Of a stretch of 64,000 nt of DNA, positions 21,282 to 56,456 are shown piece by piece. The notes under the pieces were generated by a model. It searched no databases, was not told the origin of the DNA, and saw only the letters and a program-made list of their open reading frames with translations. The stretch covers positions 100,730-164,729 of the forward strand of contig NZ_DASQBZ010000022.1 of assembly GCF_035634955.1 (NCBI RefSeq), in the 5' to 3' direction. The stretch's first letter is position 1. Every line of letters starts with the position of its first letter. This DNA is from Variovorax sp. Its GTDB lineage: Bacteria > Pseudomonadota > Gammaproteobacteria > Burkholderiales > Burkholderiaceae_C. The position numbers and the translations under genes are program-made.

Positions 21282-21292
21282 CGGAACCGGTC

Positions 21293-23176
21293 ATGCACGA
21301 CGGCCCATTCCCGCACGACGAAACGGACGCGACGCGCATCGCCGGCGCGCCGGCCCCGGCGCAGGACGGTGCCGGCCTGCTGCCCGTCGGCAGCCGCCTG
21401 GCCGAATTCGAGCTGACCCGCGTGGTCGGGCAGGGCGGCTTCGGCGTGGTCTACGAGGCGTGGGACACCGACCTCGAGCGCGTGGTCGCGATCAAGGAGT
21501 ACCTGCCGGTGTCGCTGTCCACCCGCCAGGGCGACGGCACGGTGATGCCGCTGTCCGAGCGCACGCGCGAGACGTTCGACCTGGGCATGCGCAGCTTCAT
21601 CAACGAGGCGCGGCTGCTGGCGCAGTTCGACCACCCCTCGCTGCTGAAGGTGCTGCGCTTCTGGCAGGAAAGGGGCACCGCCTACATGGCGATGCCGTTC
21701 TACCGCGGCCAGACCCTGCGCCAGGCGCTGGGCGGGCAGCGCGACGGCGGCGCGGGTGAAGCCTGGCTCATGGACATCCTGGACGGTGTGACGCAGGCGC
21801 TGGCCGTCATGCACGCGGCCAACTGCTATCACCGCGACATCGCGCCGGACAACATCATCCTGCTGGAAGATTCGGGCCGTCCTGTGCTGCTCGACTTCGG
21901 CGCGGCGCGTCGCGTCATCAGCGACAAGACGCAGGCCATCACGGTCATCCTCAAGCCGGGCTACGCGCCGGTCGAGCAATACGCCGAGATGCCCGACATG
22001 GCGCAGGGCGCCTGGACCGACGTCTATGCGCTGGCGGCGGTGATGCACGTGGCCGTGACCGGCCGGCCGCCGCCGCCTTCGGTGGCGCGCATGCTCAACG
22101 ACAGCTACCTGCCGCTGGCCGCCGACGAAGGACTGCGCACGCGCTACAGCGCGCGCCTGCTGTCGGCGATCGATGCGGGACTGGGCGTGCGTCCGCAGGC
22201 GCGCCCGCAGTCCATGGCCGAGCTGCGCGGCCTGCTGGGGCTGGAACCCGGCGACGTGCCGCGCCGCGTGCCGGCGGGCGACGGCGACGACGACCGGACG
22301 GTGATCCTGCCCCGCGCAACGCCGGGCGGCGGCCCCGCGGCTGCCCGCGCGCCGGCGGGGCGCGGGCGCACCGCGGCCGCGCTGGCCGTGCTCGCGCTGC
22401 TGGGCATCGGCGGCGCGTGGTGGTGGATGCAGCAACGCGGCGACGGCGTGCCGACGGCGAACGGCCCGGCGCCTGTCGCGGCAACGCCCGGCGTCGGCGC
22501 GCCAGCGCCGTCGATGCCGGACGCCGCGCCTGCCGGGCCTTCGCCAACCCCTGCGCCAAGCGCGGCGCTGGCGCCGGTGCCCGCGCCGCCCCCGGTCGCG
22601 CAAGCCGCGCCGCCCGCCGCACCGGCGCCGGAAGCAGCGCCGCCGCCGCCGGTCGCGCCGCGCGCGGTGACGCCGCTCGAATCGCTGCAGTCGCTCGCGC
22701 GCGGTGCCACTGCCGGCTTCGACGTGACGGCGCGGCCGGCCAAGGCGGAGGTGAACATCGGCAAGGACGCGCTGGGGTTCGACCTGCGCAGCAACCGGGC
22801 GGGCTTCGTCTACGTGTTCCTGCTGTCCTCGGGCAACGAGTTGTTCCTGCTGTTCCCGAACCTGCTGGACAAGTACAACAGGATCACGCCGAACACCACG
22901 CTCACGCTGCCGCGCGCATCCTGGCCCATGAATTCGGGCGGGCCGCCCGGCAGCAACGAGTTCGCCGTGCTGGTGAGCGAGCACGAGCGCGATTTCTCCG
23001 GCACCGGCGTCATCACCGACGGTGTCTTTCCGCAGTTTCCGTTGCCCGCCCTGGCGGCGCTGGAGGCCGTGCGCGGCACCGGCCCCGCGCCGCTGCTCGG
23101 GCGGGCGGTGTGCGCGCCCGGCACCCCCTGCCGGGATGCCTATGGCGTTGGTCGATTCAAGATCGTCGAGAAGTAA
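21293..23176 (+). CDS. ppkA: Membrane Ser/Thr kinase (PpkA-like) with Pro/Ala linker and C-terminal DUF4384-like domain
   Basis: 'GQGGFGVVY', 'VAIKEY', 'HRDIAPDNI', 'DFG', 'GYAPVEQY'. TM 'AAALAVLALLGIGGAWWW'. C-terminal 'GFVYVFLLSSGNELFLLFPN..N'. Confidence 0.85.
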   Translation: MHDGPFPHDETDATRIAGAPAPAQDGAGLLPVGSRLAEFELTRVVGQGGFGVVYEAWDTDLERVVAIKEYLPVSLSTRQGDGTVMPLSERTRETFDLGMRSFINEARLLAQFDHPSLLKVLRFWQERGTAYMAMPFYRGQTLRQALGGQRDGGAGEAWLMDILDGVTQALAVMHAANCYHRDIAPDNIILLEDSGRPVLLDFGAARRVISDKTQAITVILKPGYAPVEQYAEMPDMAQGAWTDVYALAAVMHVAVTGRPPPPSVARMLNDSYLPLAADEGLRTRYSARLLSAIDAGLGVRPQARPQSMAELRGLLGLEPGDVPRRVPAGDGDDDRTVILPRATPGGGPAAARAPAGRGRTAAALAVLALLGIGGAWWWMQQRGDGVPTANGPAPVAATPGVGAPAPSMPDAAPAGPSPTPAPSAALAPVPAPPPVAQAAPPAAPAPEAAPPPPVAPRAVTPLESLQSLARGATAGFDVTARPAKAEVNIGKDALGFDLRSNRAGFVYVFLLSSGNELFLLFPNLLDKYNRITPNTTLTLPRASWPMNSGGPPGSNEFAVLVSEHERDFSGTGVITDGVFPQFPLPALAALEAVRGTGPAPLLGRAVCAPGTPCRDAYGVGRFKIVEK

Positions 23177-23239
23177 TCGTCTGCGCCAGGTGAAGGCCGG
23201 CCATGCGGACGACCTTCGGATTCGACAAGGAGGTCTCGC

Positions 23240-24898
23240 ATGAACAGCCTTTCGCCACCGCCGCCGGCCGCCGCTTCCGCCGTCCGGAAGGCGGCGCTGG
23301 CCGTGCTGCTCGCCGGCCTGGCCGGGTGCGCCGGCATGCCGCCATCCGGCGCGCCAGCCGCCCCGGACGCCGCCGCCACGCCCGCCGCGGCGCCGGCCCC
23401 GGCGACCCCACCGCCGCCGGCCCCGATCAGCCTCGACGACCGCGCGCCCGCGCGCCCGGCTGCGGGCGCCTCGGCCGGCCCGGGCGCCAGCGTGGCCGGA
23501 CAGTCGCGCACCTTCTCGACCAGCGTGGCCACCTACACCTCGGTCGGCTACGACAAGCTGCCCGGCTGGGTGCAGGACGATTTCTCCCAGACCTGGCCGG
23601 CCTTCCTGACCAGCTGCCAGGTGCTCGACCGGCGCGGCGAGGCGTGGCGCAGCATCTGCGGGCGCGCACGCGCGGTCGACAGCCGCAACGACGCGGCCAT
23701 CCGCAACTTCTTCGAATCCGAGTTCTCCGCCTACCAGATCCGCGACGACGACCGCCGCACCGACGGCGTGGTCACCGGCTACTTCGAACCCGAACTCGCG
23801 GGCAGCCGCAACTACGCGCCGCCGTTCATCTACCCGGTGTACGGCCAGCCGCAGGACATGCTGTTCCTGGACGCGCGCAAGATTCCCGCCGGCGCCAGCA
23901 GCGTGCCGGCCCGGCTGCAGGGCAACCAGGTGATCCCGCAGGCCGGCCTGTCGACGCGCGACCTGGGCGCCCCCGGCATCTACGTGCTGGAGCTGTCGGA
24001 CGTGACCCGCGACACGCTCGATCGCAAGGTCCGGCTGCGCGCCGAGGGCCGGCGCCTGCTGCCCTACTACACGCGCCAGGAGATCGAGGCGCGCGGCGCG
24101 CCCAACGCCAGGGTGCTGGCCTTCGTGGACAACGCGATGGCGCTGTACGAGATGCAGATCCAGGGCTCGGGCCGCATCCGCCTCAAGGACGGCGAGGTGA
24201 TCCGCGTCTCGTACGCCGAGCAGAACGGGCAGCCCTTCCGGCCCACGCTGGCGAAGAACGCCAAGGGCAAGAGCAAGACCGCGGTGCGCACCCGCGGCGG
24301 TGCGGTCGAGCTGGTGCTGGACGACGATGACGACGATCTCCAGGCCGGCGACACCGACACCGGCAGCGTGCGCGTGCGCGGCTTCACGCTGGCCCGCCCG
24401 GCCGTGATGGGCGCGGTGGCGGTGCCGGGCCAGCGCACCACGGCCGCGGCCACCGGCAGCGGCATCCAGGACCCGAGCTACGTCTTCTTCAAGGAAGGCC
24501 AGTCCGGAGCCGGCGGTCCGGTCGGGGCGTTCGGCGTGCCGCTGGAGCCGGGGCGCTCGATCGCGGTGGACCCGCGCGCCACGCCGCTGGGCTACCCGGT
24601 GTACATCTCCACCCGCGAGCCGGTGGGCAACAAGCCCATGCAGCGCCTGACGGTGGCGCAGGACACCGGCGGCGCCATCCGCGGCGCGGTGCGGGCCGAC
24701 TATTTCTTCGGCAACGGCACCGAGGCCGCCGCGCAGGCGCGGCGCATGAAGGAGCGCGGCCAGTTGTGGATCCTGCTGCCGCGCGGACTGCCGGTGGCGG
24801 CGGCCGCGTCCGGCGGCATCCGCACCCGGGGCGGCGCGGCCGGCGCAAGCCTGCCGCAATGCCTGGTCGAGGAGGAGGACCTGTGCGTCGACGACTGA
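23240..24898 (+). CDS. mltA: MltA-family lytic transglycosylase lipoprotein with insertions
   Basis: Lipobox 'LAGLAGC', 'VTGYFEP', 'IQGSGRI', 'DPSYVFF', 'SIAVDP..PLG', catalytic 'AQDTGGAIRG..RADYFFG'. Confidence 0.9.
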   Translation: MNSLSPPPPAAASAVRKAALAVLLAGLAGCAGMPPSGAPAAPDAAATPAAAPAPATPPPPAPISLDDRAPARPAAGASAGPGASVAGQSRTFSTSVATYTSVGYDKLPGWVQDDFSQTWPAFLTSCQVLDRRGEAWRSICGRARAVDSRNDAAIRNFFESEFSAYQIRDDDRRTDGVVTGYFEPELAGSRNYAPPFIYPVYGQPQDMLFLDARKIPAGASSVPARLQGNQVIPQAGLSTRDLGAPGIYVLELSDVTRDTLDRKVRLRAEGRRLLPYYTRQEIEARGAPNARVLAFVDNAMALYEMQIQGSGRIRLKDGEVIRVSYAEQNGQPFRPTLAKNAKGKSKTAVRTRGGAVELVLDDDDDDLQAGDTDTGSVRVRGFTLARPAVMGAVAVPGQRTTAAATGSGIQDPSYVFFKEGQSGAGGPVGAFGVPLEPGRSIAVDPRATPLGYPVYISTREPVGNKPMQRLTVAQDTGGAIRGAVRADYFFGNGTEAAAQARRMKERGQLWILLPRGLPVAAAASGGIRTRGGAAGASLPQCLVEEEDLCVDD

Positions 24899-24923
24899 AC
24901 ACGGCGCCGCGCCGCTGATTCCC

Positions 24924-25712
24924 ATGCAAGACACCCTGTCCCTCGACGAGAGCGGCGAACTGGTCCGCCTCTGGCGGCGCCGGCAGCAGCTGTCGCCCCA
25001 AGAGATGGGGCGCATGTACCGCATCGTGGGCGAGGCGCTACGCACCTGCAACCCGCCCGAGCTCAAGGTGCTGGGCGAGGGGCGGCAGGAGCTGGTGGCC
25101 CAGTTCATCTACGTGAAGGTGCTGCGGCTGGACGCCGATGCCCAGGACGTGGGCGCCGAGCCGGGCGAGGCCGACGGCGACGGCGGGGCCGGCGAGGGCG
25201 CGGGCAGCGCGCCATCCAGTGCCTACGCCCTGTGCGCCTACTTCCGCCGCTACCTGATCGACTGCACCCGCGCCAGCAGCTTCCGGCGGCGGCTGTCGAT
25301 CGGCGACCAGGTCAGCGAGGCGCAGCTCGAGACGCAGCTGGGCAGCCAGCCTGGCCCGGCGGACGACAGTCTGGCCGAACACGGCCTGTCGGACGAGGCG
25401 GTGCAGCAGGCGGCGCGCCGATTCATCGCCGGCCTGGGCGAGCCCGAGCGGCTGCTGCTGTGCGAAGGCTTCGGCCGGGAGATGCCCGGCGGGCTGTCGG
25501 GCGTGGCGGCGCGCCATGCGATCGCGTCCTACCACTACCGCGCCGGACGGCTGGGCCTGGTGCACCGGCGCGAGGCGCTGCCGGCCGACTATGCCCGCAC
25601 CGAACTCGGGGGCTGGATCCAGGGCACGCTGGGCATCGCCATCGAGCCGGACAACATGCCCGCGATCCTGCGGGTCTTCAAAATCCTGGGGGCTGAGGCG
25701 TCTTGCGTGTAG
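24924..25712 (+). CDS. Divergent ECF-like sigma factor
   Basis: Region-2-like 'ELVAQFIYVKVL' and 'AYFRRYLIDCTR'. Region-4-like 'FIAGLGEPERLLL...LSGVAARHAIASYHYRAGRLG'. Followed by a single-TM partner gene. Confidence 0.5.
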   Translation: MQDTLSLDESGELVRLWRRRQQLSPQEMGRMYRIVGEALRTCNPPELKVLGEGRQELVAQFIYVKVLRLDADAQDVGAEPGEADGDGGAGEGAGSAPSSAYALCAYFRRYLIDCTRASSFRRRLSIGDQVSEAQLETQLGSQPGPADDSLAEHGLSDEAVQQAARRFIAGLGEPERLLLCEGFGREMPGGLSGVAARHAIASYHYRAGRLGLVHRREALPADYARTELGGWIQGTLGIAIEPDNMPAILRVFKILGAEASCV

Positions 25713-25736
25713 CGCCGCATCACCACAGGACCGAGT

Positions 25737-26921
25737 ATGCCCATCGAACTATGGCCTCCGCTTCACCTCATCCGCAGTCAGCTGGAACCGGCCTCGCCGG
25801 TGCCGGGCGGCGAGCCGGTGCGGATGGCCGGCGTCGATGCGGACGGCGCGGCGGCGCGCGCGGCCATGCCGGCCGACCTGCTGCTGCCGCTGACCGAGCT
25901 GGCGCGCCGGCGCGAGGCGCTGGCCGCGCGGGCGTTCGGCGCGCGCTGGACGCCGGGGCGCCTTGTCGGCGTGCTGCTGGATGGCCGCCTGCTGGGCGTG
26001 CTGCTCGACCGCCAGGCGCCCGGCGGCGCGTGGCACGGCTTCATGGCCGCCGGCGAGGCCGACTGGGCCGGTCCGCACGACGTGCTGCTCGAGCCTGCCG
26101 ATGAACCCTTCGAGCCGCTGTTCGGAATGATCCAGGCCTGGAACCCGGTCACCCTGATGCCCGCGCCGCAATGGCTGGCGCGGGTGCAGGGCGAGGTTTC
26201 GGCCACGCGGCTGGCCGCCGTCCGCGCGGTGCACGACGAGCATGCGGCCGGCCACGTGCCGGACATCGCGTGCGAGCCCGGGCGCATCGCCCTGCGCACG
26301 ACCGGCGGGGGCGCGTTCAGCGTGCTCAGCGGCACCCCGCTCGCCCCGGACGACGAGCGCGGCGCCTACCAGCGGCTCTACCGCGACGCGGCCGCGCGCC
26401 TGGTCGCCGCCAGCCGCCGCCTGGCCGGTGCGGACGGCACCGGCGCCGCGCCGGCCCGACATGCCGGCCCGGCCGGTGGCGCGGCGGCCGGGGCCGTCGA
26501 CCGGACGGCGGATGCGGCGCCGGCCGCGGCGCCACCGCGCGCGGCGGACGACGGGCCCTGGCAACGCCTGCGGCGCTGGCTGGGCGCCGACGGCTGGGTC
26601 CGGCCCGCGTTCGCGCTGCTGGCGCTGGTGGTGGTCGTGCAGAACCTCGTGCTGCCCGGCGGCGCAGGCGACGCGGACGACGCGCTGCGCTTTCGCGGCC
26701 TGCCCGGAGCGGCGACCGACGCGCCCACCGCCGACCTGGCGCTCAGCTTCCGACCGGACGTGCGCATGGCCGACGCGCAGCGCCTGCTGCAATCGGTGCA
26801 GGCCGAGGTGGTGGCCGGGCCGGATGCGCGCGGGACCTGGTACCTGCGCGTGCCCGACGTGACCGCCAGCCGCGCCGCGCTGGCCGCCTCGCCGCTGGTC
26901 GGCGCGGTCGGGCCGCCCTGA
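25737..26921 (+). CDS. Single-pass membrane protein, putative anti-sigma factor
   Basis: RBS AGGA upstream. Cytoplasmic N-domain, A/P/G linker, TM 'PAFALLALVVVVQNLVL', 'LRFRG', and a C-terminal module 'LSFRPD..AQRLLQSVQAEVVAGPDARGTWYLRV' like that of protease-associated anti-sigma proteins. Confidence 0.55.
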   Translation: MPIELWPPLHLIRSQLEPASPVPGGEPVRMAGVDADGAAARAAMPADLLLPLTELARRREALAARAFGARWTPGRLVGVLLDGRLLGVLLDRQAPGGAWHGFMAAGEADWAGPHDVLLEPADEPFEPLFGMIQAWNPVTLMPAPQWLARVQGEVSATRLAAVRAVHDEHAAGHVPDIACEPGRIALRTTGGGAFSVLSGTPLAPDDERGAYQRLYRDAAARLVAASRRLAGADGTGAAPARHAGPAGGAAAGAVDRTADAAPAAAPPRAADDGPWQRLRRWLGADGWVRPAFALLALVVVVQNLVLPGGAGDADDALRFRGLPGAATDAPTADLALSFRPDVRMADAQRLLQSVQAEVVAGPDARGTWYLRVPDVTASRAALAASPLVGAVGPP

Positions 26922-26942
26922 CGCGCCGGAAGGGATTCGCCC

Positions 26943-28979
26943 ATGCACGCGCTGCTGCCACCGCCCCGCTGGATGCAGGCCCTGCTGCTGGGTGCGGCAC
27001 TGTTGCTGGCCGGCGGCCAGATACAGGCGGCACATGCGGCGCGGCGCGCGCTGCTGGTGGGCGTGTCGGAACTGGCCCACCAGAGCCCTTCGCTGTGGCT
27101 GCAGGCGCCGCGCAACGACGTGCTCCTGATGCGCGACGCGCTGCAGCGCCAGGGATTCGCGCCGGGCGAGATCGCCGTGCTGGCCGACGGCATCGACGGC
27201 GCCGCGCTGCCGGATTCGCGCGGCATCCACGACGCCCTGGCCGACCTGCTCGCCCGCTCGGGCAGCGGCGACTTCGTGCTGCTGTACTTCTCCGGCCACG
27301 GCACGCGCGTGCGCGACCGCGCCAAGGCGTACGCCGAGCCCGACGGCCTGGCCGAGAACTTCCTGGCGCGTGACGCGCTGCTGCCTCCCGGCGGGGGCGA
27401 CATGCCGCTGGCCGGCGGCCTGCGCGACGTCGACGTCGACGGCTGGATCCGCGCCTTCCTGGCGCGCGGCGTGTTCGTCTGGTCGGTGTTCGACACCTGC
27501 GCGGCCACCTCCATGACGCGCGGCGTGCGCGCCCTGCCGTCCGGCCCGGCAGACGCCGACATCGACGACGTCGACGACCCGGTGCGGTTTCGCGGCATCC
27601 GCCTCGACCAGCTGGCGCAGGCGCCGGCCGGCACGCCGCTGCCGGCCGACCTGGCGCCGCCGCCCTGGCCGCCGGTGCCGCGGGCGCGCTACGTCGCCTT
27701 CTTCGCGTCGGAAAGCCACCAGGTGACGCCCGAACTGCGCCTGCCGCGCGGCGATCGCAGCGCGCGACCGCAGGGACTGCTGACCTGGGCCGTCGCGCAG
27801 GCGATGGCGCGGCGGCCGGCCACCTTCCGCGAACTCTTCAACCAGGTGGTCTCGCTGCAGGCCCCGGTGATCGGCGAGCTGGCGCCGCGCTTTCCCACGC
27901 GCGAACTGCCGTCGCCGGTGGCCGAGGGCAACCTGGACCTGCCGCTGTACGGCGCCGCGCCGGCGCCGCTGACCACGCGGCCGGCCTGGCCGGCGCGGCG
28001 CGCGGGCGGCCAGCTGCTGCTGGCGGCGGGGTTGCTCGATGGCCTGGAGCCCGGCCAGCCGGTGCGGGTGCTGGCCACGCTGGAAGGCGGCGCGCAGCGC
28101 AGCGCCACGCTTGCGTTGACGGAGGTCGACCTCGGCACCGCGCAACTGCCGGTGCCGACCGCGCTGGCCGCGCTCGGCGACGACGCGCTGTGGAGCGTGG
28201 TGCCGTCGGCCGATTCGCCGTCCGCCCAGTTGCGGGTGGGTGGCGGCGTGGCGCTGCCGGCAGCGATCAGCCTGGCCTGGCCGGCCGCGCTCCGCGCCGC
28301 GAGCGCCGGCGAAGCGGCCGACGTGACGCTCGTGCGCACGGCCGACGGCGTGCAGGCCCGCATCGTCTCGCCCGACCTGGCCGCGCTGATCAACGAGCAG
28401 GCCGTGCCGCTGGCGGACCAGGACGCGTTGCGCACCTACCTGCAGGCGCTGGCAGAACTCAAGTGGCTCGGCCGCCTGCAGCGGCTCGCGCGGGGCCGGC
28501 AGCTCGACGGCTTCGATGCCACCGTCGAGGTCTGGTCCGGCAGCCGGCTGCTGCGCAGCGAGCCGGCCGAGGCCGGCAGCGGCGCGCCACTCGAAGCCGG
28601 CGAACGGCTGAGCCTGTCGGTGCGCAACGCCAGCGGCCAGTCGCTGGATCTGGTGGTGGTCGGCATCGATGCCGATGGCGCCATCCGGCAGGTGTATCCG
28701 CCGGCCATGAGCGAGACGAATCGCTTCGAGCGCGGCAGCCGCGAGCGGCCGGCCATGCAGCGCTTCGAGCTGCCGTGGCTGGACCCGGCGCGCGGCGGCC
28801 GCCTGCTGGTGGTGGCCGCGCCGGCCGCGCCTTTTTCCGCGCCGCGCCTGTTCGGCGCGGCCGCGCCGGATGCGACGCCGCCCGCCGGCATGCGGCTGCG
28901 CGGCACACGGCCGGCGGCGCCCGACGCGCGGCGCCAGCTGTACGGCGCGCTGGCCGCATGGCCCGCGGGCGCGCGATGA
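26943..28979 (+). CDS. Exported caspase-like peptidase (family C14, ortho/metacaspase type) with C-terminal DUF4384-like domain
   Basis: Signal peptide. 'ALLVGV..RNDV', catalytic His in 'YFSGHG' (27297-27299), catalytic Cys in 'FDTC' (27498-27500). C-terminal 'AGERLSLSVRN..DLVVVGIDADGAIRQVYP'. Confidence 0.88.
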   Translation: MHALLPPPRWMQALLLGAALLLAGGQIQAAHAARRALLVGVSELAHQSPSLWLQAPRNDVLLMRDALQRQGFAPGEIAVLADGIDGAALPDSRGIHDALADLLARSGSGDFVLLYFSGHGTRVRDRAKAYAEPDGLAENFLARDALLPPGGGDMPLAGGLRDVDVDGWIRAFLARGVFVWSVFDTCAATSMTRGVRALPSGPADADIDDVDDPVRFRGIRLDQLAQAPAGTPLPADLAPPPWPPVPRARYVAFFASESHQVTPELRLPRGDRSARPQGLLTWAVAQAMARRPATFRELFNQVVSLQAPVIGELAPRFPTRELPSPVAEGNLDLPLYGAAPAPLTTRPAWPARRAGGQLLLAAGLLDGLEPGQPVRVLATLEGGAQRSATLALTEVDLGTAQLPVPTALAALGDDALWSVVPSADSPSAQLRVGGGVALPAAISLAWPAALRAASAGEAADVTLVRTADGVQARIVSPDLAALINEQAVPLADQDALRTYLQALAELKWLGRLQRLARGRQLDGFDATVEVWSGSRLLRSEPAEAGSGAPLEAGERLSLSVRNASGQSLDLVVVGIDADGAIRQVYPPAMSETNRFERGSRERPAMQRFELPWLDPARGGRLLVVAAPAAPFSAPRLFGAAAPDATPPAGMRLRGTRPAAPDARRQLYGALAAWPAGAR

Positions 28980-29004
28980 ACGATCCCCACGCACGGAGCA
29001 CGCC

Positions 29005-29562
29005 ATGAACCTGAACGCGGATGCACAACTGGATGCGGGCGAGGTGCAACGCCTGCTCGACCACATGTCGCAGGAGACCGGCAACGACTACCTGATGCTG
29101 ATCGAGAGCAAGGGCAGCGCGGTCGAAGGCGAATCCAGCCGCGCCTTCGAGGACGGCAAGCGGCGCATGCAGATCGGCGGCTACAGCTACGTGGCCGCGG
29201 TGCAGACCCCGCCGGGCACCGCCAAGGGCCAGGTGCGCATGAGCGCCGTCATGGTCGTGCGCGAATGCGATGCGGCCACGGCCACCATCGCCAGTCTGCT
29301 GAAGAACCAGGAGAGCGACCTGAAGGTGCAGATCTCCGTGTTCAAGGCCAGCGGCGACAGCTCCAGCGACCAGCAGCCGATGCTGGAGTTCGTGCTGGAG
29401 AACGCGCGCATCACCACGCAGGCGATTCTCACCGGCGGCAATCCGCGCCGGCCTTGCGAGATCATCTGCCTGACGCCGCGCAAGCTGGAGATCCGCTCGG
29501 CGCCGCAGCAGCAGACGGGCCTGCGCGGTGCGGTGCGCACCTGCACGTTGACCCAGCCCTAG
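29005..29562 (+). CDS. Divergent Hcp-like protein with N-terminal extension
   Basis: 'YLMLIESKGSAVEGES', 'VMVVRECDAATATI', 'VFKASG..QPMLEFVLENARIT', 'EIICLTPRKLEIRSAPQ' follow the Hcp pattern. RBS GGAG upstream. Confidence 0.7.
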   Translation: MNLNADAQLDAGEVQRLLDHMSQETGNDYLMLIESKGSAVEGESSRAFEDGKRRMQIGGYSYVAAVQTPPGTAKGQVRMSAVMVVRECDAATATIASLLKNQESDLKVQISVFKASGDSSSDQQPMLEFVLENARITTQAILTGGNPRRPCEIICLTPRKLEIRSAPQQQTGLRGAVRTCTLTQP

Positions 29563-36866: not shown

Positions 36867-38246
36867 ATGGCTGCCGGATCCGAGTTCCACCCGCCCAACC
36901 TCGAGCCGTCTCCCGCGGCGCCGGTGCGCCTCGGGCTGCCCGAGGCCATGGGCCTGGCGCTCGGCCTGCACCAGGCCGGCCGGCTCGACGATGCGCAGGT
37001 CCTGTACCAGCGCGTGCTGGCGGCCGAGCCCGAGCATGCGGACGCGCTGCACTTCATGGGCGTGCTGACGCACCAGCGCGGCCGCAGCGACGAGGCGGCC
37101 ACGCTGATCCGCCGCTCCATCGCCCACCAGCCCGGCATCGCCGACTGGCACAACAACCTGGGCAACGTGCTGCTGGAGTCCGGCCGCGTCGACGAGGCGG
37201 GCGCGGCCTATGAAGAGGCGGCCCGCCTGGCGCCCGAACGCGCCGACGTGCACAACAACCTGGGCGTCCTGCGGCGCGAGCAGAAGCGCCCGGAGGAATC
37301 CGAGGCGGCCTACCGCCGCGCGATCGCGCTGGACCCGTCGTTCGTCGACGCCCACACCAACCTGGGCAACCTGCTGCACAGCCTGCACCGCAACGAGGCG
37401 GCGCTGATCAGCTATTGCGAGGCGCTGGCCCTGCGGCCGCAGAACGTGCGCGCGCGGCAGGCGCTGGGCATGGCGTACTACACGCTGGGCCGCTTCGAGG
37501 AAGCCACCCGCGTCTACGCCGACTGGCTGCGCGACGAGCCCGAAAGCCCGCAGGCGCGGCATCACCTGGCGGCATGCTCCGGCCGCGACGTGCCTGCGCG
37601 GGCCGCCGACGACTACGTGGCCGAAGTGTTCGACGGCTTTGCCGGCAGCTTCGACGCCAAGCTGGCGCACCTGCACTACCGCGCGCCGCAACTGCTGGAG
37701 CAGGAGGTGCGCCGGCGCCTGGGCCCGCCGCGCGCGGCCCTGGCGGTGCTCGACGCCGGCTGCGGCACCGGGTTGTGCGGCCCGCTCCTGCGGCCGTGGG
37801 CGCGCCGGCTGCAAGGGGTCGACCTGTCGGCCGGGATGCTTGCCAGGGCCGAGCCGCGCGGCGTGTACGACGGCCTGGAAAAGGCCGAGCTGACCGCCTG
37901 GATCGCCGCCGCCACCGCCGGCAGCTACGACCTGATCGTCTCGGCCGACACGCTGTGCTACTTCGGCGACCTGGCCGAGGTCTGCCGCGCCTGCGCCTCG
38001 GCCCTGACGCCCGGCGGCTGGCTGATGTTCACCGTCGAGGCGCTCGACGACGATGCCGCCGAGCCGGTGCGGCTCAATCCGCACGGGCGCTACGGCCACC
38101 GTGCCGACTACCTGCGCCAGGTGCTGGCGGGCGCCGGCCTGGGCGCAACCGAAGTGCAGGCGGCGCACCTGCGCACCGAGGGCGGACGGCCGGTGGCCGG
38201 CTGGCTGGTGTCGGCCTGCAAAGCCGGCGAGGCTGGATCGTCTTGA
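36867..38246 (+). CDS. TPR-repeat protein with C-terminal class I SAM-dependent methyltransferase
   Basis: TPRs ('WHNNLGNVL', 'HNNLGVL', 'HTNLGNLL'), 'YVAEVFDGFAGSFD', SAM motif 'VLDAGCGTGLCG'. Confidence 0.88.
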   Translation: MAAGSEFHPPNLEPSPAAPVRLGLPEAMGLALGLHQAGRLDDAQVLYQRVLAAEPEHADALHFMGVLTHQRGRSDEAATLIRRSIAHQPGIADWHNNLGNVLLESGRVDEAGAAYEEAARLAPERADVHNNLGVLRREQKRPEESEAAYRRAIALDPSFVDAHTNLGNLLHSLHRNEAALISYCEALALRPQNVRARQALGMAYYTLGRFEEATRVYADWLRDEPESPQARHHLAACSGRDVPARAADDYVAEVFDGFAGSFDAKLAHLHYRAPQLLEQEVRRRLGPPRAALAVLDAGCGTGLCGPLLRPWARRLQGVDLSAGMLARAEPRGVYDGLEKAELTAWIAAATAGSYDLIVSADTLCYFGDLAEVCRACASALTPGGWLMFTVEALDDDAAEPVRLNPHGRYGHRADYLRQVLAGAGLGATEVQAAHLRTEGGRPVAGWLVSACKAGEAGSS

Positions 38247-41223: not shown

Positions 41224-42360
41224 ATGGAAATCGTCAACGCAAGCGGCCACACCGTGGGCTACACGCAGGGCGTGGAGCCCAGCGGGCGCGAGTGGCTGGT
41301 GGTCGTGGCCAAGGGCACTTTCAGCCTGCCGGCGCCGGACGATCCGGCGGGTGCGCTCGCGCCGCGCCATCCGATGCAGGTGCCGCTGGTGACCGCCGAT
41401 ACCTTCACCGGCGAGCCCGGCTTCTCGGCGCCCCGGCTGGAGGTCGACTTCGCGCTGCGCAAGCCGCGCTGCGACATCCTGCTCAACGGCAGCGCCCATG
41501 CGCCCGATGGCGAGCCGGTCGAGCGGGTGCTGGTCGGCGCGCGCGTGACGGCCGGGGCGCAGTCTTGGCAGAAGTCCATGGCGGTCGTCGGGCCGCGGCA
41601 CTGGTCCAGCGGCCTGGGCGGCATACGCGCGAGTCCGCCGCAGTCCTTCGTGCGTCAGCCGATCTCCTACGACGTGGCCTTCGGCGGCCTGGACCAGCGC
41701 CATGAAGACCCGGCCGAGCATGCCGCGTACCGGCGCAATCCCGTCGGGCGCGGCTGGCACCGGCACCTGCAGGGGCGCTACGTGGACGGCGCGCCGCTGC
41801 CCCTGACCGAGCAGGTGGACGCGCCGGTGAGCGCGCCGGACGGCGACCACGTGCCGATGGCCTATGGCCCCGTCGGGCGCGGATGGTCGTCGCGCCTGCC
41901 CTACGCGGGCACGTACGACCAGGACTGGATCGACAACACGTTCCCTTTCCTGCCGGCCGACTTCCAGGACGCCTACTACCAGGCGGCGCCGATGGACCAG
42001 CAGATCGCGCACCCCATCGACGCGGCATCGCTCGAGGTCACGCTGGTACACCTGACCGGGCAGCCGCACGTGCGCTTCCGGCTGCCGTGCCAGGGGCTGC
42101 CGGTGTCGTTCTTCCGCCGCCGCGGCGGTCACGAGCAGGTGACGGCGGTGATGGACACGCTGGTCATCGATACCGATGCGCACTGGGCCACCGTCACCTG
42201 GCGTGCCGCGCTGCCCCTGCGCAAGAGCATGCTGGAGATCAGCAACGTGCTGGTGGGCACCATGTCCCAGGGCTGGTGGCGCGCCCGCGCGCTGGGCAAG
42301 ACCTGGCATCCGTCGCTGGGCGCGCTGGTGCGCAATCGCGGCGCGGAGGATGCGGCATGA
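41224..42360 (+). CDS. DUF2169 T6SS adaptor/chaperone
   Basis: 'WLVVVAKGTF', 'DFALRKPRCDILLNGSAHAP', 'YAGTYDQDW..PFLPADF..YYQAAP', 'MDTLVID'. Confidence 0.9.
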   Translation: MEIVNASGHTVGYTQGVEPSGREWLVVVAKGTFSLPAPDDPAGALAPRHPMQVPLVTADTFTGEPGFSAPRLEVDFALRKPRCDILLNGSAHAPDGEPVERVLVGARVTAGAQSWQKSMAVVGPRHWSSGLGGIRASPPQSFVRQPISYDVAFGGLDQRHEDPAEHAAYRRNPVGRGWHRHLQGRYVDGAPLPLTEQVDAPVSAPDGDHVPMAYGPVGRGWSSRLPYAGTYDQDWIDNTFPFLPADFQDAYYQAAPMDQQIAHPIDAASLEVTLVHLTGQPHVRFRLPCQGLPVSFFRRRGGHEQVTAVMDTLVIDTDAHWATVTWRAALPLRKSMLEISNVLVGTMSQGWWRARALGKTWHPSLGALVRNRGAEDAA

Positions 42361-43413: not shown

Positions 43414-44547
43414 ATGGCCAACCAGGTGTTCGCCAACGGCCGCGAACTCGCCTGCAAGGCCGGCGCGGGAAAGACCATCTGCGCCCTGCCCGACGTGTGC
43501 ATGACGCCGCCCGAGAACCCCGCCACCCCGCCCGGCGTGCCGGTGCCCTATCCCAACACCGGCCTGGCCTCGGACACTACCGACGGCAGCCGCTCGGTGC
43601 AGATCTCGGGCAAGGAGGTCATGCTCAAGAACAAGTCGTACTTCAAGACGTCGAGCGGGGACGAGGCCGGCTGCGCGGCCAAGAAGGGCGTCGTCTCGAG
43701 CAAGAACAAGGGCAAGGTCTATTTCATCGACTGGTCGATGGACGTGAAGCTCGAGGGCGAGAACGCGGTGCGCCATCTCGACAAGACCACCAACAACCAC
43801 GGCAGCCCCACGGCCAACGAGGCGGTGCCCTGGCCATTCGTCGACTCGATGGACGACGCCGAGATCAAGGCGTTGTGCGACAAGGACAAGGCGCAGGAGA
43901 AGGCCGCGTGCGCGGACTACAAGCCGCACAAGGCGGATGGCAAGGACGTGTGCGCCCAGACCGGCCTGGATGGCGACTTCGCCTCCATCAAGGGCGACCT
44001 GCCCGGCGCAGCCAAGAAGGCCAGCGAGAACCCTTGCCTGGCGGCGCGGCGCTGCCGGCTGGTGCCCTACAAGGCGTCGCCCGAGGTGGCCGACGGAATC
44101 GGCGGCTGCTGCCCCGCGCAGACGGGCGACCACATCGTGCCCAAGAGTTCGTTCTTCAAGGACAAGTTCGGCGGCACGCCCATCGGCGGCTGGACCTACA
44201 GCATGAACAAGGCCCCGTGCATGTGTACCGAGGGCGGCAGCTGCTCGGGCACGCACGGCCTGCGGCACACGCACCACAAGACCACGTCGGCGGTGGCCCA
44301 CGGCAAGCCGGTGCCGTTCGAGACCGAGGTCAAGCATTGCGCCAAGGGTGCCAAGGCGGTGGCGCCCCAATGCAACGAGGAGTGCCTGGCGGCGCAGCTG
44401 CGCGAGGGGCACAAGGACATGGGCGATCCGGCCACGGACATCAAGCACTCGTCCACCGGCAAGCCCGACATCACGCACTACGACTCGCTCAAGCAGACGA
44501 TCGACCAGACCGCCGGCAAGCTGGGCCACCCACTTCCATTTCCCTGA
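43414..44547 (+). CDS. T6SS effector: DUF4150 PAAR-like domain fused to a Tox-GHH2-like HNH/EndoVII nuclease
   Basis: N-terminal 'VFANG..PDVCMTPP..GVPVPYPNT..MDVKLEGENAVR..TTNN'. C-terminal 'CLAARRCRLVPY..GCCPAQTGDHIVP..APCMCTEG..HG..H'. Confidence 0.8.
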   Translation: MANQVFANGRELACKAGAGKTICALPDVCMTPPENPATPPGVPVPYPNTGLASDTTDGSRSVQISGKEVMLKNKSYFKTSSGDEAGCAAKKGVVSSKNKGKVYFIDWSMDVKLEGENAVRHLDKTTNNHGSPTANEAVPWPFVDSMDDAEIKALCDKDKAQEKAACADYKPHKADGKDVCAQTGLDGDFASIKGDLPGAAKKASENPCLAARRCRLVPYKASPEVADGIGGCCPAQTGDHIVPKSSFFKDKFGGTPIGGWTYSMNKAPCMCTEGGSCSGTHGLRHTHHKTTSAVAHGKPVPFETEVKHCAKGAKAVAPQCNEECLAAQLREGHKDMGDPATDIKHSSTGKPDITHYDSLKQTIDQTAGKLGHPLPFP

Positions 44548-53768: not shown

Positions 53769-54251
53769 TCACACCTTCTTGTTCGCGGCAATATCCCAGC
53801 CGATGGTCTTGGCCGCGCCGCCGGCGCCCTTGGCATCCTGAGGCACGTATTCGTACTTGAACTTGCCGAAGTTCAGCGTGACGTTCTCGGTCAGGCGGTC
53901 CTCGCCGCCGCTGCCGCCGGTGCTCACCGACGAGACGATCAGGTCGTTGAGCGTGATCTTGATGTATTCCAGCGGAGTCTCGCCCGCCTTGCGCACCACC
54001 AGCGTCGCCTCCTCGATGTGCTTGCCGTTGCAGCAGGCCAGCAGCAGCGCATGGGAGGCCGAATCGATGTACTTGGTGAGCGACAGGTCCTGCACGTTCA
54101 CCTTGCCGGAGCCGGCGCCGCCGCCCATGTGCGCGGTGCCCGACTGCGACACGCCCCAGTTCCAGGCCAGGACGTCGATCTCCTTCTTGTGCTTGTCGTC
54201 GGCCGACTCGCCCTCGATGTCCTTGATCTTGATAAACATGTCTACGGCCAT
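53769..54251 (-). CDS. hcp: T6SS tube protein Hcp (TssD)
   Basis: 'MAVDMFIKIKDIEGESADDKHKKEIDVLAWNWG', 'QDLSLTKYIDSAS', 'ENVTLNFGK', 'GWDIAANK'. Confidence 0.97.
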   Translation of the reverse strand: MAVDMFIKIKDIEGESADDKHKKEIDVLAWNWGVSQSGTAHMGGGAGSGKVNVQDLSLTKYIDSASHALLLACCNGKHIEEATLVVRKAGETPLEYIKITLNDLIVSSVSTGGSGGEDRLTENVTLNFGKFKYEYVPQDAKGAGGAAKTIGWDIAANKKV

Positions 54252-54400
54252 GATGCTCACCTTTCGGATGTGTGGGTGGAACGACGGTGCTGTCCGGATC
54301 GCTGCCGAGGCGGTGGGCTGATCCGGGAGCTATCTGGAAGACGAACCAGCCGGCCCGGTTGAAAGACGCGTCCGGCCGGCCGGCGAAAACCTCCTTCGCG

Positions 54401-55900
54401 TCAGCCGGCGCCCTTGGCCGAGGGAAGCTTGGAGACGAGCCGCAGCGACACGGTCAGGCCTTCGAGCTGGTAGTGCGGGCGCAGGAAGAACTTGGAGGCG
54501 TAGTAGCCGGGGTTGCCTTCCACCTCCTCCACGACCACCTCGGCGGCGGCGAGCGGGCGTCGCGCCTTGGTCTCTTCCGACGAGTTGGCCGGGTCGCCGT
54601 CCACGTAGTTCATGATCCACTTGTTGAGCCAGCGCTCCATGTCCGCGCGCTCCTTGAAGCTGCCCACCTTGTCGCGCACGATGCACTTGAGGTAGTGCGC
54701 GAAGCGGTTGCAGGCGAACAGGTACGGCAGGCGCGCGGCCAGGTTGGCGTTGGCGGTAGCGTCCGGATCGTCGTACTCGGCCGGCTTGTGCAGCGACTGG
54801 GCACCGATGAAGGCGGCGAAGTCGGAGTTCTTGCGATGGATGAGCGACAGCAGGCCGGCCTTGGACAGCTCCGCCTCGCGCCGGTCGCTGATGGCGATCT
54901 CGGTCGGGCACTTCTGGTCGACACCGCCGTCGTCACTCGGGAAGGTGTGCAGCGGCAGGTTCTCCACCGCGCCGCCGGACTCGATGCCGCGAATGCGCGA
55001 GCCCCAGCCGTACAGCTTGTACGAACGGTTGATGTTGGTGGCCATCGCATAGGCGGCGTTGGCCCAGGCGTACTTGCCGTGGTCGGCGCCGTCGGTGTCC
55101 TCCTCGAAGTCGAACTCTTCCACCGGGTTGGTCTTGGCGCCGTAGGGCGTGCGCGCCAGGAAACGCGGCATGCACAGGCCGATGTACTTGGAGTCGTCCG
55201 ATTCGCGCAGCGAGCGCCAGGCGGCGTATTCGGGCGTGGAGAAGATCTTGGTCAGGTCGCGCGGGTTGGCCAGCTCCTGCCACGATTCCATCTGCATCAG
55301 GTTGGGGCTTGCGCCGGTGATGAACGGCGCGTGCGCCGACGCCGCGATCTTGGCCATCTCGCCGAGCAGTTCCACGTCCGGCGGGCTCTGGTCGAAGTGA
55401 TAGTCGCCCAGGATGGCGCCGAACGGCTCGCCGCCGAACTGCCCGTACTCCTGCTCGTAGATCTTCTTGAACAACGGGCTCTGGTCCCAGGCCGTTCCCT
55501 TGAATTTCCTGAGCTGCTTGTGCAGTTCCTTCTTCGAGATGTCCATCACCCGGATCTTCAGGTTCTCGTCCGTCTCGGTGTTGTTGACCATGTAGTGCAG
55601 CCCGCGCCACGCGCTCTCGAGCTTCTGGTAGTCCTCGTGGTGGATGATCCGGTTGACCTGCTCGGTGAGCTTGGCGTCGATGGCCGCGATCATGGCCTGG
55701 ATCGACTGCGTCACATCCTTGCCGATGATCGTGGTGTTGGCCAGCGCCTGCTGCGCCAGCGTCTGCACGGCGGCCTCGACGGCGCTGCGGGCCTCGTCGC
55801 TGCGCGGCTTGAACTCCTTGCTCAGCAGCGACGAGAAGTCGCTGCCGGCGTATTCCACTTCCTTGAGTGCGCTTTGCTGCTGTTCGGCGGCGTCGGCCAT
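54401..55900 (-). CDS. tssC: T6SS sheath large subunit TssC
   Basis: 'QKLESAWRGL', 'EYGQFGGEPFG', 'HAPFI', 'CPTEIAISDRRE', 'LRPHYQLEGL'. Confidence 0.97.
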   Translation of the reverse strand: MADAAEQQQSALKEVEYAGSDFSSLLSKEFKPRSDEARSAVEAAVQTLAQQALANTTIIGKDVTQSIQAMIAAIDAKLTEQVNRIIHHEDYQKLESAWRGLHYMVNNTETDENLKIRVMDISKKELHKQLRKFKGTAWDQSPLFKKIYEQEYGQFGGEPFGAILGDYHFDQSPPDVELLGEMAKIAASAHAPFITGASPNLMQMESWQELANPRDLTKIFSTPEYAAWRSLRESDDSKYIGLCMPRFLARTPYGAKTNPVEEFDFEEDTDGADHGKYAWANAAYAMATNINRSYKLYGWGSRIRGIESGGAVENLPLHTFPSDDGGVDQKCPTEIAISDRREAELSKAGLLSLIHRKNSDFAAFIGAQSLHKPAEYDDPDATANANLAARLPYLFACNRFAHYLKCIVRDKVGSFKERADMERWLNKWIMNYVDGDPANSSEETKARRPLAAAEVVVEEVEGNPGYYASKFFLRPHYQLEGLTVSLRLVSKLPSAKGAG

Positions 55901-55934
55901 GGTGTTCTCCTGGTGGATCGGTGGGGCCGCGTGC

Positions 55935-56456
55935 TCAGGCAGCGGCCGGCGGCTCGGCGGCGGGCTTGGCGGTGGCGGCCAGGGACTTGAGCAGTTCCGG
56001 GTCGTCCAGCACCTTGGCCAGCAGGTTCTCGGCGCCGCCCTTGCCGTCCATGTAGGTGACCAGGTTGGCCAGCTGGGCACGTGCCTGCAGCAGCTTGTCG
56101 AGCGCGTCCACCTTGCGTGCCACGGCGGCCGGCGAGAAGTCGTCCATGCTCTCGAAGTTCAATTCGACCTTGAGATTGCCCTCGCCGGTGAGCGTGTTGG
56201 GCACCTCGAACGCGGCGCGCGGCTTCATGGCCTTCATGCGCGAATCGAAGTTGTCCACGTCGATCTCGAGGAACTTGCGCTCCCCCGGGGGCGTGACCTT
56301 GTCCGGCTCGGCCGGCTTGCCCGACAGGTCGGCCAGCACGCCCATGACGAAAGGCAGCTGGATCTTCTTCTCGGCGCCGTACAGCTCGACGTCGTACTCG
56401 ATCTGCACGCGCGGCGCCCGGTTGCGGGCGATGAACTTCTGACTGCTCTGGGCCAT
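55935..56456 (-). CDS. tssB: T6SS sheath small subunit TssB
   Basis: 'SSQKFIARNRAPRVQIEYDVE..LPFVMGVLADLSG', 'FESMDDFSP'. Confidence 0.97.
   Translation of the reverse strand: MAQSSQKFIARNRAPRVQIEYDVELYGAEKKIQLPFVMGVLADLSGKPAEPDKVTPPGERKFLEIDVDNFDSRMKAMKPRAAFEVPNTLTGEGNLKVELNFESMDDFSPAAVARKVDALDKLLQARAQLANLVTYMDGKGGAENLLAKVLDDPELLKSLAATAKPAAEPPAAA

Follow-up and report, generated by a model that had tools for sequence, protein, structure and literature searches.

Conserved arginine motifs as candidate cleavage sites of a periplasmic metacaspase-like protease encoded in a type VI secretion gene cluster of Variovorax

Introduction

The substrates of bacterial caspase homologues are, to our knowledge, almost unknown, and we know of no substrate genes adjoining those of the cyanobacterial orthocaspases. 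The type VI secretion system (T6SS) has dedicated peptidoglycan enzymes, such as MltE, recruited by TssM in E. coli, and TagX in Acinetobacter, and a control pathway formed by PpkA, PppA and TagF. In the RseA/DegS/RseP paradigm of regulated proteolysis at the membrane, intramembrane proteases accept short stubs. Among plant metacaspases, AtMC4 carries a linker lysine (Lys225) that sits in a pocket formed by Ser84, Asp137, Ser350 and Asp352. Calcium triggers a first cut at Lys225, followed by further cuts after Arg/Lys residues of the linker and then by cleavage of Propep1 after an arginine, and substrate recognition relies mainly on main-chain contacts with low sequence specificity (PMC7206013). 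The present work deals with a stretch of 64,000 nucleotides of Variovorax sp. (contig NZ_DASQBZ010000022.1, positions 100,730 to 164,729, hereafter the window; G+C of about 72%), in which a gene for a caspase-family protease stands in a T6SS gene cluster, close to genes for an MltA-type lytic transglycosylase (MltA) and for a single-pass membrane protein of 394 residues (p394).

These three proteins share short arginine motifs, made of a hydrophobic residue, [R/K]-x-R and then a small residue, which at the sequence level are strong candidates for sites of the neighbouring protease. The reading favoured here, held to have somewhat better than an even chance, is that the motifs are the substrate sites of a periplasmic, Arg-specific metacaspase-like protease of a T6SS module, which would process itself, MltA and p394.

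Arginine Motifs in Three Neighbouring Proteins

A sequence-only reading of the window had listed six motifs, and all of them translate exactly at the positions it gave. Thus, VRTRGG (24284-24301), VRVRGF (24368-24385) and IRTRGG (24818-24835) belong to the 552-residue open reading frame (ORF) of MltA, LRFRG to the 394-residue ORF, and both MRLRG and SMTRG (R193 at 27519-27521) to the 678-residue caspase ORF (Table 1). A seventh site that had been overlooked, VRFRG, corresponds to residues 214-218 of the caspase and follows the acidic run DIDDVDDP. Apart from SMTRG, which is treated with the protease below, the sites are named M1 to M3 in MltA, A in p394, and C1 and C2 in the caspase.

The strict pattern [VILM]R[TVFL]RG is found six times in the 1,624 residues of MltA, p394 and the caspase, versus once in the 17,749 residues of the 38 other proteins of the window. 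As this pattern was set after the hits had been seen, the looser [VILM]RxRG was also counted. It occurs six times in each of the same protein sets, which amounts to an 11-fold enrichment (Poisson 2e-5), and the motif does stand out from the background of the window. Shuffling the three proteins 20,000 times with their composition preserved never gives a count as high as six, the mean being 0.30, and the contents of arginine and glycine are equal in both protein sets (9% and 10%). The further statement that the substrate set is predictable from sequence alone was an overreach, the scan having been confined to the window and to the flanks of the related loci.

Conservation of the Motifs

The motifs were followed in 85 orthologous loci retrieved by two genome scans, from Variovorax, Pseudacidovorax, Xenophilus, Polaromonas, Ottowia and others, and the orthologue alignments contain 65-81 sequences per protein from five genera of the Comamonadaceae. 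The conservation in orthologues that had been set beforehand as a check was found at all six loop sites. Indeed, the second arginine, which is the putative P1 residue, is kept in 95-100% of the orthologues, the exceptions being truncated or misaligned sequences. At M1, it is present in 65/65 orthologues, and at site A, R320 is invariant in the p394 alignment. The columns of the motifs have conservation scores of 0.82-0.93 versus 0.46-0.78 for their flanks, and the linkers around the motifs vary in sequence and in length among orthologues. The arginine codons of the sites vary synonymously (CGC, CGG, CGT, CGA and AGA), which argues for selection on the protein and rules out a DNA-level repeat as the source of the conservation.

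As for the Arg-Gly core proposed from the sequence, the arginine holds throughout, whereas the glycine does not hold in the p394 orthologues, where the position is occupied by S, A, G, N, D or T. Conserved [RK]xR[GSA] sites number six in MltA and the caspase together, against a single one in seven control proteins of the same loci (2,389 residues), and the orthologue alignment scan finds none in the periplasmic part of the kinase encoded upstream of MltA. The motif as a feature of the kinase or of T6SS proteins in general was therefore rejected.

Although the protease and p394 are otherwise unrelated, the linker site C1 of the former and site A of the latter have the consensus D-D-E-V-R-F-R in common. 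In one Ottowia metagenome-assembled genome (MAG), the P3 arginine has gone at M1 (GVAVR/G), M2 (GTLTR/GF) and C2 (DVLLR/A), whereas it is kept at site A and at C1. This joint loss, seen in a single lineage, may reflect a co-evolution of the enzyme and its sites.

The Caspase-Family Protease

The product of the caspase gene matches PF00656 with 36.8 bits for a cut-off of 21.4, the match covering only residues 34-133, and no CHAT domain (PF12770) or TPR was matched in it by Pfam. When a profile of 40 orthologues is compared to the PDB, the best match is the Arabidopsis metacaspase AtMC4 (2.3e-12) together with AtMC9, followed by TbMCA2, GSU0716 and Yca1. A Foldseek search with the AlphaFold2 model (predicted template modelling score, pTM, of 0.73) likewise returns metacaspases, GSU0716 and MALT1 as its top 22 matches, with E-values from 6e-6 and a probability of 1.00.

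The catalytic His119 (27297-27299, in FSGHG) and Cys186 (27498-27500, in FDTC) are invariant in the 40 orthologues, as are Asp59 (in N58-D59-V60), Ser117 and Asp184. The specificity aspartates that had been pointed out in R57-N58-D59 and D184-T185-C186 are thus both present and invariant. S117-G-H119 and D184-x-C186 align with Ser84/His86 and Asp137/Cys139 of AtMC4, respectively, and the acidic pocket residue on the p10 side is probably E257, assigned by eye, in the invariant A-S-E-S-H-Q. From this putative AtMC4-like pocket and the linker, Arg/Lys specificity and self-processing in the linker past the catalytic cysteine can be inferred on good grounds, by analogy, for the protease of the window.

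In the model, the predicted local distance difference test (pLDDT) falls below 50 in residues 187-234, which form the p20-p10 linker (27501-27644), and in residues 631-662. C1 is located in the former segment, at a pLDDT of about 22-30, and is the best candidate for autoprocessing at R217. C2 is located in the latter, a loop that precedes the last beta strand.

SMTRG had been proposed as an autoprocessing site just downstream of the catalytic cysteine. S190, T192 and R193 are invariant in the orthologues, and the equivalent arginine is also invariant in a distant clade of relatives (CHSGTMTRG; R189 in one member of that clade). As this arginine, beside the catalytic cysteine, is invariant superfamily-wide, even at 30% identity, the proposal gives way to a structural one, and SMTRG is probably, as judged from this conservation, a part of the active-site loop and not a cleavage site.

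Residues 120-158 (27300-27416), right after the catalytic histidine, are rich in invariant positions (T121, R122, R124, K128, Y130, E132-P-D-G-L136, E138 and F140-L-A-R-D144), yet their pLDDT is below 40. The motif EPDGLxExFLxRD of this segment is also kept in the distant clade and, through its acidic residues, may provide a calcium site comparable to the L5 loop of AtMC4. The C-terminal part of the protease is made of beta-rich domains with a weak DUF4384 match at residues 551-616 (28593-28790). On the periplasmic side, a DUF4384-type beta domain is thus common to the kinase, with a strong match, and the protease, with a weak one. Foldseek also reports a low-scoring resemblance between 86 residues of the protease model and the flagellar ring protein FlgT.

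Motif-Bearing Segments of MltA

In a profile search of PDB structures, MltA matches the solved MltAs 7esj and 2g5d at about 1e-57. The lipobox LAGC and the motif AQDTGGAI of the catalytic region are conserved in 65/65 MltA orthologues. The protein scores 77 bits with the NCBIfam MltA equivalog, for a cut-off of 242, and hence belongs to a divergent subfamily.

The solved MltAs served as the comparison control for the segments that carry the motifs. Their alignments skip residues ~336-409 and stop near residue 519, which places M1 and M2 in a lineage-specific insertion and M3 in a C-terminal extension. The insertion is 75 residues long here, versus about 38 in 7esj, and within it M1 and M2 flank the acidic run D361-D366 (24320-24337). 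Just past M3, residues 533-552 (24836-24895) contain a conserved Cys-x7-Cys followed by acidic residues (LPQCLVPxEGxCVDD), which is probably a disulfide loop.

The sequence-only reading had described the motifs as lying in low-complexity linkers of the periplasm, and this description agrees with the caspase loops of pLDDT below 50, with the MltA segments absent from the solved MltAs and with the single helix of p394, outside of which R320 lies. The lipobox of MltA and the signal peptide of the caspase are conserved in the orthologues. Taken together with the topology of p394 and the disorder of the linkers, these signals lead to the prediction that the six sites are exposed in the compartment of the protease itself.

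The Membrane Protein p394 and Its Neighbour p262

p394 comprises a cytoplasmic N-terminal domain of about 285 residues, a membrane helix at residues ~289-307 (26601-26657) and a periplasmic C-terminal domain of about 75 residues. Charges are positive before the helix and acidic after it, as expected for an N-in/C-out orientation. R320 lies about 13 residues outside the membrane helix, with the domain of about 75 residues beyond it. The gene immediately upstream encodes p262, whose AlphaFold2 model is all-alpha with a pLDDT of 67.

The sequence-only reading had called p394 anti-sigma-like. As far as layout is concerned, the term is apt: p394 is single-pass and N-in/C-out, it ends in a small periplasmic domain, and its gene adjoins that of p262 in 76-81 of the 85 loci. 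Homology does not follow. No family match was obtained for p394 in Pfam, NCBIfam or the PDB and no anti-sigma domain was detected, and p262 matches nothing in Pfam, NCBIfam or the PDB profile search, nor does its model in Foldseek. Comparison of p262 by hhalign gives a probability of 0.5% with E. coli RpoE and of 0.3% with nine extracytoplasmic function (ECF) sigma factors of distant loci. In that alignment, YFRRYLIDCTR pairs with region 2.4 and ERLLLCEGFG with region 4.1, in a collinear way, yet at a probability of 0.3%. In the absence of a significant match in any of these searches, p262 as a sigma factor was rejected; the UniRef name 'Sigma-70 family' carried by one p262 orthologue was not counted as evidence. 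Nor is p394 retained as a homologue of the anti-sigma-like proteins found beside distant caspases, as hhalign gives 1.6% and the likeness is one of layout only. The term thus describes architecture and analogy, not family membership.

Gene Row and Type VI Secretion Context

The kinase, MltA, p262, p394, the caspase-family protease and an Hcp-like protein are encoded by a tight row on the + strand (21290-29562). Upstream, the row is flanked by TssM, with IcmF domains, and by TagF. On the 3' side of the protease gene, family matches to ImpE (TagJ), gp25 (TssE) and TssF mark a T6SS structural operon that always comes after the protease gene, followed by a PP2C phosphatase, a DUF2169 protein and a PAAR-like toxin. 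With T6SS core genes at both of its ends, the row is embedded in a T6SS cluster. The kinase has a single membrane helix at residues 362-380, as judged from hydropathy, and its DUF4384 domain is periplasmic (residues 491-565, 22760-22984).

Close relatives of the protease are confined to the Comamonadaceae, according to a protein search, and the order kinase, MltA, p262, p394, caspase, Hcp, TagJ, TssE and TssF is kept across loci. Among the 85 loci, the kinase is found in 67, p262 in 76, p394 in 81 and the Hcp/TagJ/TssE/TssF flanks in 78-81. On two Polaromonas MAG contigs, p262, p394 and the caspase stand directly before Hcp, TagJ and TssE, and housekeeping genes (radical SAM, BamD/YfiO, RluD) replace the kinase and MltA on the upstream side. 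As these loci lack the kinase and MltA at that position, the trio of p262, p394 and caspase appears to be the core of the module.

Further features of the cluster were noted. The match of the Hcp-like protein to the Hcp profile is weak (9.4e-07, residues 41-157), and the protein is extended at its N-terminus by about 40 residues; its orthologues are 35-76% identical, far below the neighbouring TagJ, TssE and TssF. Between the ClpV region and VgrG, positions 36867-38246 encode TPR repeats fused to a class I methyltransferase domain. Downstream of the DUF2169 gene (41224-42360), positions 43414-44547 encode the PAAR-like toxin, which has a C-terminal GHH2 HNH/Endo VII nuclease domain and is probably a T6SS effector. 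On the minus strand, positions 53769-56456 hold a second Hcp (MAVDMFIKIKDIEGES...) and probable TssC and TssB, as judged by eye from the ORF list.

Table 1. Position in the window of the candidate sites, of the protein segments that hold them and of the genes of the row.
Feature	Position	Strand	Remarks
Site M1, VRTR/G	24284-24298	+	MltA, P1 = R352; consensus V-[RK]-[TV]-R/G
Site M2, VRVR/GF	24368-24382	+	MltA, P1 = R380; consensus [IV]-R-[TV]-R/G-F
Site M3, IRTR/G	24818-24832	+	MltA, P1 = R530; consensus [IV]-R-T-R/G
Site A, LRFR/G	26685-26699	+	p394, P1 = R320; consensus D-[DE]-[ED]-V-R-F-R/[S/A/G/N]
Site C1, VRFR/G	27582-27596	+	Caspase, P1 = R217; consensus D-D-E-V-R-[FW]-R/G
Site C2, MRLR/G	28890-28904	+	Caspase, P1 = R653; consensus [ED]-[LV]-R-V-R/G
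SMTRG	27510-27524	+	Caspase residues 190-194; R193 seven residues past Cys186
Caspase-family (C14, metacaspase-like) protease, 678 residues, signal peptide	26943-28979	+	Pfam Peptidase_C14 4.3e-09
MltA-type lytic transglycosylase lipoprotein, 552 residues	23240-24898	+	Pfam MltA (PF03562) 2.5e-30, 3D (PF06725) 5.2e-22
Lineage-specific MltA insertion, residues ~336-409	24245-24466	+	Stretch skipped by HMMER alignments to 7esj and 2g5d
MltA C-terminal extension, residues 520-552	24797-24895	+	Solved MltAs end at the equivalent of residue ~519; holds M3
p394, single-pass membrane protein, 394 residues	25737-26921	+	Hydropathy
p262, cytoplasmic, all-helical, highly conserved, 262 residues	24924-25712	+	Always immediately upstream of p394
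Ser/Thr protein kinase	21290-23176	+	Pfam Pkinase 1.6e-25, DUF4384 1.3e-12; first of the conserved five-gene module
Hcp-like gene	29002-29562	+	Pfam T6SS_HCP; followed by TagJ, TssE and TssF

Distant Relatives of the Protease

An exhaustive profile search yields 533 cluster representatives with the same overall architecture at E <=1e-30. They include a distant clade of proteins of about 700 residues, about 30% identical and spread among alpha-, beta-, gamma- and zetaproteobacteria, whose catalytic motifs are GHGSQ and FDxCHS. None of the kinase, MltA, p262, p394 or T6SS genes was found beside the distant caspases in 80 loci. The distant clade retains the arginine of a C1-equivalent block (x-R-x-R-x-V-x-P-x-x-L-G), and further along the linker it frequently has [KRH]-T-R-G; in the C-terminal loop, xxTRG is present in 33/35 sequences. 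Since their neighbours differ, these relatives lend the favoured reading independent support at the level of the family.

In six of the distant loci, the caspase gene is directly preceded by the genes of a true ECF sigma factor, as shown by its Pfam matches to Sigma70_r2 and r4, and of a small single-pass protein. The latter has an invariant Arg-Gly about 10 residues past its helix, the only other invariant periplasmic residues being a proline and a glycine further on. The Arg-Gly often follows acidic residues, as in EDDQARFRGGE, and a domain of about 80 residues lies beyond it, which is the layout of p394.

Recurrent neighbours in the distant loci are a patatin-like phospholipase, a response regulator, a DegP-like trypsin-PDZ protease and a giant TPR-CHAT protein, itself a second caspase-like protease; in several loci, two or three caspase paralogues are encoded side by side. 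This gene content suggests multi-protease periplasmic systems.

Proposed Mechanism and Alternative Explanations

If the motifs are cleaved by the protease, the latter would be held inactive by its own p20-p10 linker, as is plant metacaspase 4, and self-cleavage would take place after R217 and, in a C-terminal loop, after R653. Calcium or envelope damage may serve as the trigger, by analogy. In p394, a cut after R320 would act like a site-1 cleavage, shedding the small C-terminal domain on the periplasmic side and leaving a stub for intramembrane proteolysis, which in turn would free the cytoplasmic domain of p394 and its partner p262. In MltA, cuts after R352 and R380 would excise an acidic loop of about 28 residues, and a cut after R530 would remove the tail with the cysteine loop. 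Such a processing would alter the activity or the partners of a cell-wall enzyme needed for the machine to pass the peptidoglycan. A more far-reaching version would make the protease a master switch of the T6SS, in which a danger signal (calcium entry or envelope damage, as for plant metacaspase 4) leads to self-cleavage. The active enzyme would then unlock an autoinhibited MltA by excision of its acidic loop, so as to open the peptidoglycan at the place of assembly of the machine, and would at the same time shed the periplasmic domain of p394 and thereby start the intramembrane proteolysis of a hitherto unrecognised regulator pair, p394 and p262, not of the sigma-70 type. This version is regarded as doubtful.

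Several points weigh against the motifs being cleavage sites. The evidence for the putative cleavage is wholly comparative. The P-value of the strict pattern is inflated, the pattern having been drawn from the hits themselves, and the background was counted on the proteins of the window and on the flanks of related loci, so that the motif may well occur in further proteins or be more frequent genome-wide. Given the low sequence specificity of AtMC4, a strict P4-P1 motif is not to be taken for granted in this class of enzymes. Conserved RxR motifs that are clearly structural occur in the same proteins, namely KVRLRAEG and MKERG in the folded domains of MltA, and GHGTRVRD and SMTRG in the core of the protease; conservation of RxR alone is therefore no proof of a cleavage site. 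The block equivalent to C1 in distant relatives runs into a conserved V-x-P-x-x-L-G-I-P and could be structural or regulatory instead of scissile. Finally, p394 and p262 have no detectable homology to anti-sigma-like proteins and sigma factors, respectively, and the downstream signalling is drawn by analogy.

That the motifs are not cut in trans and serve for docking, or as pseudo-substrates that bind a common partner such as the cleft of the protease or the DUF4384 domains and thereby assemble or inhibit a periplasmic complex, is judged improbable, although conserved islands in disordered loops typify binding motifs as much as cleavage sites and DUF4384 is present in two proteins of the module. 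AtMC4 itself provides a precedent, as its linker lysine stays uncut in the pocket as an inhibitor until calcium arrives (PMC7206013), and the C1 block of the distant clade, being part of a longer conserved stretch, points the same way. Against docking, the sole invariant position of each site is the would-be P1 arginine, with a small residue next to it, which fits the expected specificity. In addition, the acidic loop of MltA flanked by two sites and the p394 site just outside the helix resemble layouts of excision and shedding, and the invariance of the His-Cys pair indicates that the protease is under selection to be active. The arginines could also have been kept independently, each RxR-Gly for a structural reason of its own (a turn, or a salt bridge to the acidic runs that stand beside several motifs), in Arg/Gly-rich proteins of a 72% G+C genome. 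Arginine and glycine do make up 9-10% of residues each, and further conserved RxR sites of the same proteins lie in folded domains. Such a coincidence is nevertheless distinctly improbable in view of an 11- to 66-fold enrichment over 38 proteins of the same composition, a count that no shuffle reaches, and of a single conserved site in the 2,389 residues of the control proteins of the same loci. Moreover, the sites fall in low-confidence or inserted segments, outside the folded cores, and D-D-E-V-R-F-R in two unrelated proteins is hard to obtain by chance.

It is also conceivable that the sites are really processed, but by another periplasmic protease, either a housekeeping one or one encoded elsewhere, the caspase-like protein having other substrates. 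Arg-specific cleavage is not exclusive to the C14 family, and trypsin-like/PDZ proteases stand beside the distant relatives, so that loci of this kind do have proteolytic partners. This explanation is considered very improbable, since the protease bears two sites itself, one of them near-identical to the site of p394, and the motif-bearing genes are strictly syntenic with the protease gene, with no second protease gene in the conserved module. Furthermore, relatives of the protease that have different neighbours retain the loop motifs. Processing by the caspase-family protease of the module thus remains the favoured reading.

Comparison with Known Systems

The closest sequence and fold matches, the type II plant metacaspases AtMC4 and AtMC9, have in common with the protease of the window the SGHGTR and D-x-C motifs, the Ser/Asp pocket for a basic P1 residue, a long linker past the catalytic cysteine with conserved basic residues and an acidic loop after the catalytic histidine. 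The multi-site self-cleavage of AtMC4, followed by the cleavage of a signalling substrate after an arginine (PMC7206013), is the parallel predicted here. Unlike its plant relatives, the window protease is bacterial and periplasmic, with a signal peptide and about 350 additional beta-rich, DUF4384-like residues at the C-terminus. Pfam matches only the first half of its p20, and the motif described here has a defined P4 and P3 (hydrophobic and arginine), whereas the specificity of AtMC4 is low. Cyanobacterial orthocaspases such as MaOC1 are likewise prokaryotic C14 proteins with a His-Cys pair, cut after basic residues and autoprocess past the cysteine at an arginine (PMC6426788). No link of orthocaspases to secretion systems, to cell-wall enzymes or to membrane regulators is known, and they have other C-terminal domains.

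The nearest parallel to the candidate site in p394 is DdvA/DdvS of Myxococcus xanthus, in which a periplasmic domain of caspase fold is proposed to clip a flexible linker by the membrane helix, as a site-1 step before RseP that frees a cytoplasmic regulator (PMC11506125). DdvA differs in that its protease domain is of the CHAT type and forms one protein with the anti-sigma factor, that it is paired with a true ECF sigma factor in the context of phage defence and that the cleavage is only proposed (PMC11506125), whereas the locus of the window encodes a separate C14 protein. In the craspase of type III-E CRISPR systems, where Csx29, associated with Cas7-11, cuts Csx30, a caspase-like protease also stands beside the gene of its substrate, and this substrate is a regulator that holds a transcription factor (PMC10028731). 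Craspase is cytoplasmic and RNA-activated, belongs to the CHAT type, cleaves past a Met or Leu residue and has no known connection with secretion or with enzymes of the cell wall (PMC10028731; PMC11506125). Like RseA in the textbook RseA/DegS/RseP cascade, p394 is an N-in/C-out single-pass regulator with a small periplasmic domain, and its candidate cut lies about a dozen residues outside the membrane. The two differ in that this locus revealed neither a serine protease of the DegS type nor a sigma-70 or anti-sigma domain, and in that its site-2 step is purely inferred.

As in the systems of MltE and TagX and of PpkA/PppA/TagF, a lytic transglycosylase, a Ser/Thr kinase, a PP2C phosphatase and TagF lie inside the T6SS cluster. 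In contrast to MltE and TagX, MltA here carries a motif-bearing insertion and a tail that are absent from the solved MltAs. In the literature search, nothing was found on caspase-family genes in T6SS clusters, on a link between a caspase-family protease and a lytic transglycosylase, or on protease-gated cell-wall enzymes. What seems new in this locus is a free-standing periplasmic C14 protease with named candidate substrates, a T6SS context and possibly a protease-gated MltA, the candidate substrates and the exact putative scissile bonds being nameable from comparative sequence data.

If the favoured reading is true, it would add a proteolytic layer to the control of the T6SS and provide the first protease-gated lytic transglycosylase of a secretion machine. 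It would also have a free-standing C14 protease act as the site-1 enzyme for a membrane regulator, a role that has so far been proposed only for the fused CHAT domain of DdvA. The master-switch version, if true, would be the bacterial equivalent of damage signalling by caspase-like proteins, and would give the T6SS a third control route in addition to the kinase/phosphatase and TagF pathways. In distant proteobacteria, a protease gene again follows the gene of a single-pass protein whose Arg-Gly stands just outside the membrane, there together with true ECF sigma factors, and this principle may therefore be widespread.

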